Assembly: GCF_000026545.1 (NCBI RefSeq)
Contig: NC_011601.1
Strand: one strand, 5' to 3'
Length of the DNA stretch: 64,000 nt
DNA from: Escherichia coli O127:H6 str. E2348/69
GTDB lineage: Bacteria > Pseudomonadota > Gammaproteobacteria > Enterobacterales > Enterobacteriaceae
Both the position numbers and the translations under genes were made by a program. How positions within the stretch are numbered: position 1 is the first letter of the stretch; every line of letters begins with the position of its first letter. A model generated the notes under the pieces. The model was not told the origin of the DNA. It saw only the letters and a program-made list of their open reading frames with translations, and searched no databases. Shown in pieces: positions 8,116 to 9,681 of this stretch.

Positions 8116-8123
8116 CTGATTAT
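8116..8123. repeat. target-site duplication, left copy (CTGATTAT)
   Basis: Identical 8-mer immediately outside both IS ends (second copy 9674-9681); a 9-bp reading CTGATTATC is possible if the first C of the left IR is counted. Confidence 0.55.
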
Positions 8124-8142
8124 CTGTCTCTTGATCAGATCT
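8124..8142. repeat. IS terminal inverted repeat, IE-like end, contains two GATC Dam sites
   Basis: CTGTCTCTTGATCAGATCT read directly. Confidence 0.75.
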
Positions 8143-9508
8143 CCTGATCAAGAGACTTCATCACCAGGTAACCCTCAACCATATCCTGAAGTCTGAACCA
8201 GCCATCCCACATGACTACCCAACCGGGGCGACCGGTGCGTTTGCTGTCATGCCATCGCCCCAGTTTCGCCAGTTTCAGACAGGCCCATTTCAGTGTCGGC
8301 ATCTGTGACGGAAGCGGTTTTCCTTCCAGCTTAACCCACAGCAGTTTCCACTCTGTCGGCGTCAGTATTTTCTCACAGCTGTCATTTTGTGTTTCTTCAC
8401 TGATACCGCCCTGCCGCAGGCCCAGCACCCGCACCGCGATAAACGCCTTGATAACCACCATGCGCTCGAGGTTATCCCGGGTCTGCATTCGCAGCGATTC
8501 CACACATGTACCACCACTTTTCCACGCCTTGTGGTATTCCTCTATCAGCCAGCGTCGCTCGTAATGGCTGACGATACGTCGCGCATCGGCGGCACTCGCC
8601 ACTTTTTCTGACGTCAGCAGATGCCAGCAGGCGCCGTCCTCTGCCTGCTCCCGGCAACAGACATACGTGAGCGGGAGCGCCTGGCCGCTGTTGTCGGGAT
8701 TTTTTATGCTGACTTCGCTGTAACTGATGAACATCCGGGCCTGGCGGGCTGCCCGCCCGCCTTTTTGCATCACATTCAGCGTGTGGCTTCCCGCGGTTGC
8801 CAGGACTTCCGGCAGTTCGAAGAGCTTGCCGGGTGCTTCTTCCAGCCGGCGATTCTGTGCTGCACGCACCACGAAGCGCTGCCCGTGGCTGACTTTATAA
8901 TGCAGGTAATGCCAGATATCCGCTTCCCGGTCACAGACAGTGATTACCCGTTTCTGTATCTCCCCCAGCCGTTCGGCCATGCGCTCCGAAGCCTGCTGCC
9001 AGCGGTAACTTTCTTTTTCTTCATAGGGACGTTCTTTTCGCTGGTGCTTAACACCGTAGGTGTCCGTGGCACGACTCCAGCGCTGCTGTTCGATAAGACC
9101 GACTGGCAGGGCGCTGTCGGGGGCGTACATCAGGACAGAGTGAGCCAGCAGCCCGCGCGTCTTCGGGTTAGTGGTGGTATTCCCCAGGTCATCAGATGCC
9201 GTACTGTGACTGAAGTTAATGGTGGTGGTGTCTTCCAGCGCGAGGAGCAGCGGATGAGCCTCACATGCCCTTACAGTGGCGGTAAATCCGGCTTCGGCAA
9301 TGGCTTGCGGGGACACAGACGGGTTACGTATCAGGCGGTACGCACCTTCAACCTGAGCAGTGGACTGGGATGATTTCACAATAGAAAGACCTGCATGCTG
9401 AGCGAGAGAAGAGGCCAGTGACACAAGGCGTCGTGTACGACGCGGATCACCGAGACGGGCATGTCCAAACTGCTCGTTAGCCCATGAATAACAATCAGAA
9501 AGTACCAT
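8135..9508 (-). CDS. IS4-family (Tn5 Tnp-like) DDE transposase, 457 aa
   Basis: Blocks shared with Tn5 transposase as remembered: LGDPRRTRRLV, EGAYRxIRNP, LEDTT, VCDREADI, RFVVR, RWxIEExHKAWKSG, DNLERMV, KLGRWHDSKRTG; overall clearly divergent from Tn5 Tnp. Confidence 0.85.
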   Translation of the reverse strand: MVLSDCYSWANEQFGHARLGDPRRTRRLVSLASSLAQHAGLSIVKSSQSTAQVEGAYRLIRNPSVSPQAIAEAGFTATVRACEAHPLLLALEDTTTINFSHSTASDDLGNTTTNPKTRGLLAHSVLMYAPDSALPVGLIEQQRWSRATDTYGVKHQRKERPYEEKESYRWQQASERMAERLGEIQKRVITVCDREADIWHYLHYKVSHGQRFVVRAAQNRRLEEAPGKLFELPEVLATAGSHTLNVMQKGGRAARQARMFISYSEVSIKNPDNSGQALPLTYVCCREQAEDGACWHLLTSEKVASAADARRIVSHYERRWLIEEYHKAWKSGGTCVESLRMQTRDNLERMVVIKAFIAVRVLGLRQGGISEETQNDSCEKILTPTEWKLLWVKLEGKPLPSQMPTLKWACLKLAKLGRWHDSKRTGRPGWVVMWDGWFRLQDMVEGYLVMKSLDQEI

Positions 9509-9654
9509 AACAGACCCGAAGAAAATGAAATATAAGAGAAGATCAACAGGTGAGGAAAAAGTTCAAAAAATCGCTGCCGGGGAGGAAGGAAACTACCGGA
9601 TGGAAAGAGTCCCCCTAAAGCAGACTGACAGACATCACAAATCCCCGGGTGGGG

Positions 9655-9673
9655 ATTTGTGTATAAGAGACAG
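9655..9673. repeat. IS terminal inverted repeat, OE-like end
   Basis: Reverse complement CTGTCTCTTATACACAAAT; first 9 nt identical to the other end. Confidence 0.75.
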
Positions 9674-9681
9674 CTGATTAT
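9674..9681. repeat. target-site duplication, right copy (CTGATTAT)
   Basis: See left copy. Confidence 0.55.

Follow-up and report, generated by a model that had tools for sequence, protein, structure and literature searches.

Positions 8124-9673 of the window, the whole 64,000-nucleotide stretch of the enteropathogenic Escherichia coli O127:H6 str. E2348/69 analysed here, hold what we regard with high confidence as an intact copy, probably still active, of the known insertion sequence ISEc13, of the IS4 family and IS50 subgroup, which lies on the minus strand inside the malK-lamB-malM operon. The element is already named, catalogued and routinely annotated, and it is not new. Over its complete length (1-1550) it is 100% identical to the ISEc13-annotated copies of E2348/69, at 30 matching places on the chromosome and two on pMAR2. 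RefSeq labels these identical copies "IS4-like element ISEc13 family transposase"; an exact match of the protein appears as "transposase of ISEc13" and as the ISEc13 transposase Q0H069. The name used here rests on those that RefSeq and UniRef give to the identical sequence. By the ISfinder convention, copies sharing >95% protein or >90% DNA identity are counted as the same element; the copy in the window shows 100% DNA identity to RefSeq-annotated copies and an exact protein match.

Near full-length ISEc13 is present in 873 of 5,426 complete E. coli genomes, of human, animal and water origin, and it is annotated on many plasmids also. There are relatives in Photorhabdus, Serratia, Budvicia and further genera. 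The searchable papers contain inventory mentions only of ISEc13, and there is no text on it in the supplements of PMC2266710. As a named, RefSeq-annotated insertion sequence in a well-known pathogen genome, the element itself carries little weight; its position between lamB and malM can serve to mark strains of the E2348/69 lineage.

The lamB-malM site and transcription into malM

The gene upstream of the element is lamB, coding for maltoporin (6610-7950, plus strand), an open reading frame that is also given by the RefSeq annotation of the identical E2348/69 region. The downstream gene, malM (9740-10675, plus strand), is intact, as judged from its sequence and from the RefSeq annotation mapped onto the window. 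RefSeq (PGAP) already records the order malK, lamB, ISEc13 transposase, malM at the E2348/69 locus, in agreement with a preliminary description of this DNA that had placed the insertion inside the operon. lamB and malM are now 1,789 bp apart, versus 231 bp without the element, and the insertion lies 66 bp upstream of the malM ATG. The same description had given the lamB-malM spacer as 90 bp, a figure that has to be corrected: the empty spacer measures 231 bp (242 bp in K-12), and it is rich in REP sequences, with two REP-type units.

One of these, a REP/BIME-type palindromic unit at 7963-8033 (plus strand; repeats D2 and I1), matches the Rfam family naRNA4, a REP-derived nucleoid-associated RNA, with 74.8 bits, above the gathering score. 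The other unit, at 8054-8116, matches naRNA4 more weakly, and this weaker match ends on the first base of the target duplication. Our Rfam scan of 7800-9900 returned only these naRNA4 matches in the spacer and none inside the element. A small hairpin, GGGGC-GAAA-GCCCC, is found at 8101-8114 (plus strand, -12.9 kcal/mol) and is conserved in K-12. Its 3' arm is the C-run (8111-8114) of the target motif described below, and the CGGG directly after the right copy of the duplication (9682-9685) is the G-run of that motif.

An exact 8-bp direct repeat, CTGATTAT, stands on both sides of the element, with its left copy at 8116-8123 and its right copy at 9674-9681, so that positions 8116-9681 comprise the element and both repeat copies. 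When the element and one repeat copy are removed, the resulting sequence is 100% identical in two other E. coli genomes, and this empty site is found at a coverage of at least 80% in 5,292 of the 5,426 complete E. coli genomes, K-12 included, where it is always annotated as lamB-malM. K-12 MG1655 and the reconstructed empty site both read ...GCCCCTCTGATTATCGGGTTT..., with CTGATTAT present a single time, and the K-12 MG1655 alignment across the junction reads ...AAGGGGCGAAAGCCCCTCTGATTATCGGGTTTAGCGCG..., again with one CTGATTAT. The comparison of the emptied sequence with K-12, which had been proposed as a check, thus found its match and fixed the duplication at 8 bp, and the flanking direct repeat keeps its meaning as the mark of a transposition event, occurring twice here and once in K-12. 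A 9-bp duplication of the Tn5 type was considered for this copy and rejected, because the ends are set by full-length 100% matches and only CTGATTAT is repeated.

The junction between lamB and the element was found in only three genomes, all of them assemblies of E2348/69 or O127:H6. Given that the empty site is widespread and the filled junction is restricted to these three genomes, the insertion is genuine and lineage-specific, with an 8-bp duplication. Furthermore, a recent date is indicated by its restriction to one lineage and by the 100% identical empty site that near-identical strains retain. By homology, a Tn5-like DDE transposase would bind both 19-bp ends, form a synaptic dimer and excise the element, and its pasting into the target by staggered cuts would leave the 8-bp duplication CTGATTAT.

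Other copies of ISEc13 have their own duplications, of 8 or 9 bp. The pMAR2 copy (2020-3569 of the plasmid stretch compared) lies between finO and a hok/gef gene and lacks a target duplication, an absence that suggests a neighbouring deletion or recombination between copies. Two ISEc13 copies in genome GCA_045344535.1 carry exchanged duplications, CTGGTTCG and TTGGGGAG each being split between the two loci, and this exchange indicates an inversion by recombination between the two copies. The sequence at one of these sites, TTGGGGAGAGGGTTAGGGTGAGGGG, is of the BoxC type.

The transposase gene (tnp), on the minus strand, is antisense to the plus-strand genes of the mal operon, so that transcripts from malKp would have to run through 1.55 kb of antisense sequence that is not translated and holds terminator-like hairpins, and a reduction of malM expression is likely. 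The sense strand of the operon contains six terminator-like hairpins between 7900 and 9800, versus 1.4 expected from shuffles, and five of the six are inside the element (window 8588-9005, plus strand, antisense to tnp). The strongest of the internal ones, GGCGGGCTGCCCGCCCGCC followed by TTTTTG (8743-8761, plus strand, -16.9 kcal/mol), is not unusual against shuffles (z = -0.9). The internal hairpins could limit transcription coming from outside the element. A consensus scan for sigma-70-like promoters found none on either strand of 7900-9800, neither for tnp nor directed outward to malM; the scan is crude and missed tnp's own promoter too, so that a weak outward or hybrid promoter may escape it.

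We consider it likely, from the arrangement of the sequence, that the insertion is polar on malM and lowers its expression, in which case it may represent a natural polar mutation of this gene for a periplasmic protein. No data on malM expression in E2348/69 were found in the searchable literature. Alternatively, the insertion might be transcriptionally neutral: read-through could supply malM mRNA, or the gene could have its own promoter or use an outward or hybrid one at the right end. The gene is intact and keeps, beyond the duplication, 58 bp of native upstream sequence including the Shine-Dalgarno; the insensitivity of the consensus promoter scan and the unexceptional strength of the best internal hairpin relative to shuffles also speak for neutrality. 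However, an untranslated antisense RNA of 1.55 kb is the kind of transcript on which Rho-dependent polarity classically acts, as is generally known for insertion sequences, the element adds five sense-strand terminator-like hairpins to a region in which six are seen for the 1.4 expected, and no promoter-like site was detected on either strand of 7900-9800. We therefore hold neutrality to be rather unlikely, and polarity on malM remains the reading that we prefer.

Ends, transposase and origin of the element

The element starts with CTGTCTCTTGATCAGATCT and finishes with ...ATTTGTGTATAAGAGACAG. Its left terminal 19 bp, CTGTCTCTTGATCAGATCT (8124-8142, plus strand), are inside-end-like, contain two GATC sites and show 0 mismatches to what we take to be the IS50 inside end; a third GATC of the left tip lies beyond them, at 8146-8149. 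The only occurrence of CTGTCTCTTGATCAGATCT in the searchable literature is within one mini-Tn5 screening primer. The right terminal 19 bp, read inward as CTGTCTCTTATACACAAAT (9655-9673, minus strand), resemble the outside end and the mosaic end, with two mismatches to the Tn5 outside end and two to the mosaic end, both references being oligo sequences in PMC3347997. The right end also includes TTATACACA, which fits the DnaA-box consensus TTATNCACA. Left and right ends have 13 of 19 positions in common, the first nine among them. These results leave standing what the preliminary description had said of the element, namely its length of 1,550 bp and its coordinates, a left end identical to the IS50 inside end with two GATC sites, and a right end that is a two-mismatch variant of the outside or mosaic end.

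Members of the IS50 subgroup are 1,350-1,550 bp long, with ends of the form CW------Y---CA-A--W- and direct repeats of 8-9 bp (PMC2266710). The element in the window is 1,550 bp long, both of its ends carry C1, T2, T9, C13, A14, A16 and T19, its repeat measures 8 bp at lamB-malM and either 8 or 9 bp elsewhere, and its transposase has Tn5-type N-terminal DNA-binding and C-terminal dimerisation domains.

The transposase is coded by a single uninterrupted open reading frame of 457 codons (8135-9508, minus strand), with no frameshift, as required of the IS4 family; as in IS50, the stop codon falls within the left terminus. The protein aligns end to end with the Tn5 transposase structure sequences in the PDB (E = 6e-84). 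Its identity to Tn5 Tnp is 42.6%, a value obtained with a Tn5 reference sequence with which the PDB alignment agrees wherever the two were compared by eye; this is not the near-identity to IS50R Tnp that would define IS50/Tn5 itself. Residues D93, D193 and E323 align with Tn5 D97, D188 and E326, and Y316-R319-E323-K330 align with Tn5 Y319, R322, E326 and K333. The IS4 family is defined by just such a DDE triad and by the signature Y-(2)-R-(3)-E-(6)-K in region C1 (PMC2266710). Moreover, the NCBIfam model NF033590 (transpos_IS4_3) gives 514.1 bits versus a cutoff of 160, and all three Tn5 domains were recognised by Pfam: Tnp_DNA_bind (E = 2.8e-19), DDE_Tnp_1 and Dimer_Tnp_Tn5 (E = 9.7e-5). An Inh-like internal start was sought at the position of Tn5 M56 and rejected, the aligned residue being Q52 and its neighbour V53 being coded by GTT. 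As there is no Met at the Tn5 inhibitor-start position, an Inh-type inhibitor made from that site is not expected.

Two other accounts of the element have to be weighed against this evidence. An engineered mini-Tn5 or a laboratory Tn5 derivative left by mutagenesis would account for the left 19 bp, which equal the inside end of mini-Tn5 vectors, and for a right end only two mismatches away from the mosaic end. However, the transposase shares no more than 42.6% identity with Tn5 Tnp, the element carries no marker and no cargo, it matches 30 places on the E2348/69 chromosome and is found nearly full-length in 873 of 5,426 complete E. coli genomes, and its relatives extend to Photorhabdus, Serratia, Budvicia and other genera. 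Taken together, the protein divergence, the lack of cargo and the natural distribution exclude an engineered mini-Tn5, to which we give practically no chance. The preliminary description had proposed a natural IS50 relative with a divergent 457-aa transposase retaining the Tn5 catalytic blocks, and had singled out near-complete identity to Tn5 Tnp as the result that would speak for an engineered derivative. Its proposal is borne out by the 42.6% identity, the conserved DDE and YREK residues, the absence of cargo and the wide natural distribution.

It could also be supposed that this ISEc13 copy is a dead relic, immobile and merely inherited, and the failure to find a consensus promoter for tnp might be read in that sense. 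We regard a relic as very improbable, since the 457-aa open reading frame is intact with all catalytic residues kept, both ends and the duplication are perfect, the copy is 100% identical to those on the E2348/69 chromosome and pMAR2, and the insertion is confined to one lineage whose near-identical strains keep a 100% identical empty site, as would follow a recent event. The intact reading frame, the identical copies and the fresh duplications suggest instead that ISEc13 is probably still active.

Target sites, terminal hairpins and solo palindromes

Almost all copies of ISEc13 lie between a C-run and a G-run placed around 8-9 bp, according to the pattern CCCC[Y]-N8/9-[R]GGGG, and such target sites often are the loop of a perfect hairpin or terminator. 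Examples are the sites gcccct-CCCGAAGA-aggggc, aaccctct-CCGGGCGG-agagggtt and aaaccctct-GTTACTAC-agagggtttttt, the last of which is a terminator loop. GGG was present at outward positions 9-12 in 30 of 36 distinct half-sites, versus 3.5% of window positions (binomial P ~3e-38, for half-sites that are partly dependent, with some pairs stemming from a single insertion and some sites recurring in more than one strain), and G was found at outward positions 10-13 in 26 to 33 of the 36. In relatives from Photorhabdus, Budvicia, Serratia and E. whittamii, too, this C-run stands in the left flank, at a distance of 8-10 bases from the tip; the right ends of the distant relatives (Photorhabdus, Serratia, Budvicia), sought via the AAGAGACAG tip, were located at one locus only. 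The lamB-malM site, GCCCCT-CTGATTAT-CGGG, beside the small hairpin, fits the rule of C-run and G-run. As a target it does not look like a random choice. In the searchable literature we found no description of this CCCC...GGGG preference of ISEc13.

Both ends of the element can fold. At the left tip, a perfect palindrome with a 13-bp stem (8126-8156; inverted repeat I12; -21.6 kcal/mol, z = -5.1) arises because the inside-end-like tip is succeeded by an inverted copy of itself, with 8126-8138 pairing with 8144-8156; it overlaps the tnp stop codon and holds the third GATC. A perfect hairpin with an 11-bp stem overlaps the inner part of the right end (9636-9661; inverted repeat I25; -21.5 kcal/mol, z = -5.1), where 9636-9646 pairs with 9651-9661. 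The left hairpin may serve as a 3' structure of the mRNA or protect against transcription that comes from outside.

The exact 21-mer of the left tip was found in 45 stretches from other species, about 10 of which hold no insertion sequence; they contain a solo 35-bp palindrome, CTGTCTCTTGATCAGATCTCCTGATCAAGAGACAG, inside BoxC-like palindromes. This palindrome, made of two inside-end-like tips, is unannotated in several species and in E. coli, where it occurs in the lldD-trmL spacer of at least three genomes, including ATCC 8739 (601-635 of the stretch compared). Matches of at least 33 of the 35 bases of CTGTCTCTTGATCAGATCTCCTGATCAAGAGACAG are present in 1,837 E. coli genomes, versus 873 with full ISEc13, the left end of which carries 33 of the 35 bases. 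The element contains a pair of 7-bp repeats, AAGAGAC, at 8150-8156 and 9665-9671, and a deletion between them would yield exactly the solo-palindrome remnant. The solo 35-bp palindrome may thus be what a deletion left of an ISEc13-like element; this origin is unproven because no clean target duplication flanks the solo palindromes. A 2015 study of the BoxC/TMECO motif reported no transposase remnants near the motifs (PMC4666352).

From these observations we put forward, tentatively and at somewhat less than even chances, the idea that ISEc13 and its relatives home to CCCC-N8/9-GGGG palindromes, that is, terminator loops, REP-adjacent hairpins and BoxC/TMECO triplex motifs, leaving 35-bp footprints in such motifs across Enterobacterales. 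The searchable literature yielded no account of such homing. If this homing is true, the lamB-malM insertion would be one instance of it, and the 35-bp footprints in BoxC-type repeats could help to explain variation at those repeats.

Relation to IS50/Tn5 and to other IS4-family elements

The element does not differ from ISEc13 as found elsewhere; only its insertion site between lamB and malM is particular to the E2348/69 and O127:H6 lineage. ISEc13 resembles IS50/Tn5 in its three-domain architecture, in its DDE and YREK residues, in the single open reading frame that stops in an inside-end-like terminus, and in its ends, the left one equal to the inside end with Dam GATC sites and the right one outside-end-like with a DnaA-box sequence. 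Dam and DnaA inputs are known for IS50, and by analogy the GATC sites and the DnaA-box-like TTATACACA would act in ISEc13 as they do there; the same analogy predicts a cut-and-paste chemistry like that of Tn5. In contrast to IS50/Tn5, with which it shares 42.6% protein identity, ISEc13 has a transposase of 457 aa instead of the 476 aa of Tnp, a Q52 where Tn5 has the Met of its inhibitor start (M56), a duplication of 8 bp (sometimes 9) rather than 9 bp, a left tip that is a perfect palindrome with a 13-bp stem, and a strong CCCC...GGGG preference where the Tn5 consensus is weak.

Collins et al., a reference listed in PMC4666352, are said to have described in 1982 the remnants left by "nearly precise excision" of Tn10 and Tn5. 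The solo palindromes are like these remnants, as products of a deletion between the AAGAGAC repeats would be, and unlike them in the absence of a clean target duplication.

IS231A and IS186, which belong to the IS4 family but to other subgroups than ISEc13, likewise favour targets in which short, symmetric G/C runs border the duplicated bases, and such symmetric runs are consistent, by analogy, with a transposase dimer that reads both arms of the target. The polarity of the runs is opposite in IS231A (GGG-N5-CCC), and the duplications are longer. The target specificity of IS231 is mentioned in PMC2266710. ISEc13, which chooses hairpin-like CCCC...GGGG targets with high fidelity, offers a naturally occurring and site-selective relative of the Tn5 transposase, itself in wide use.
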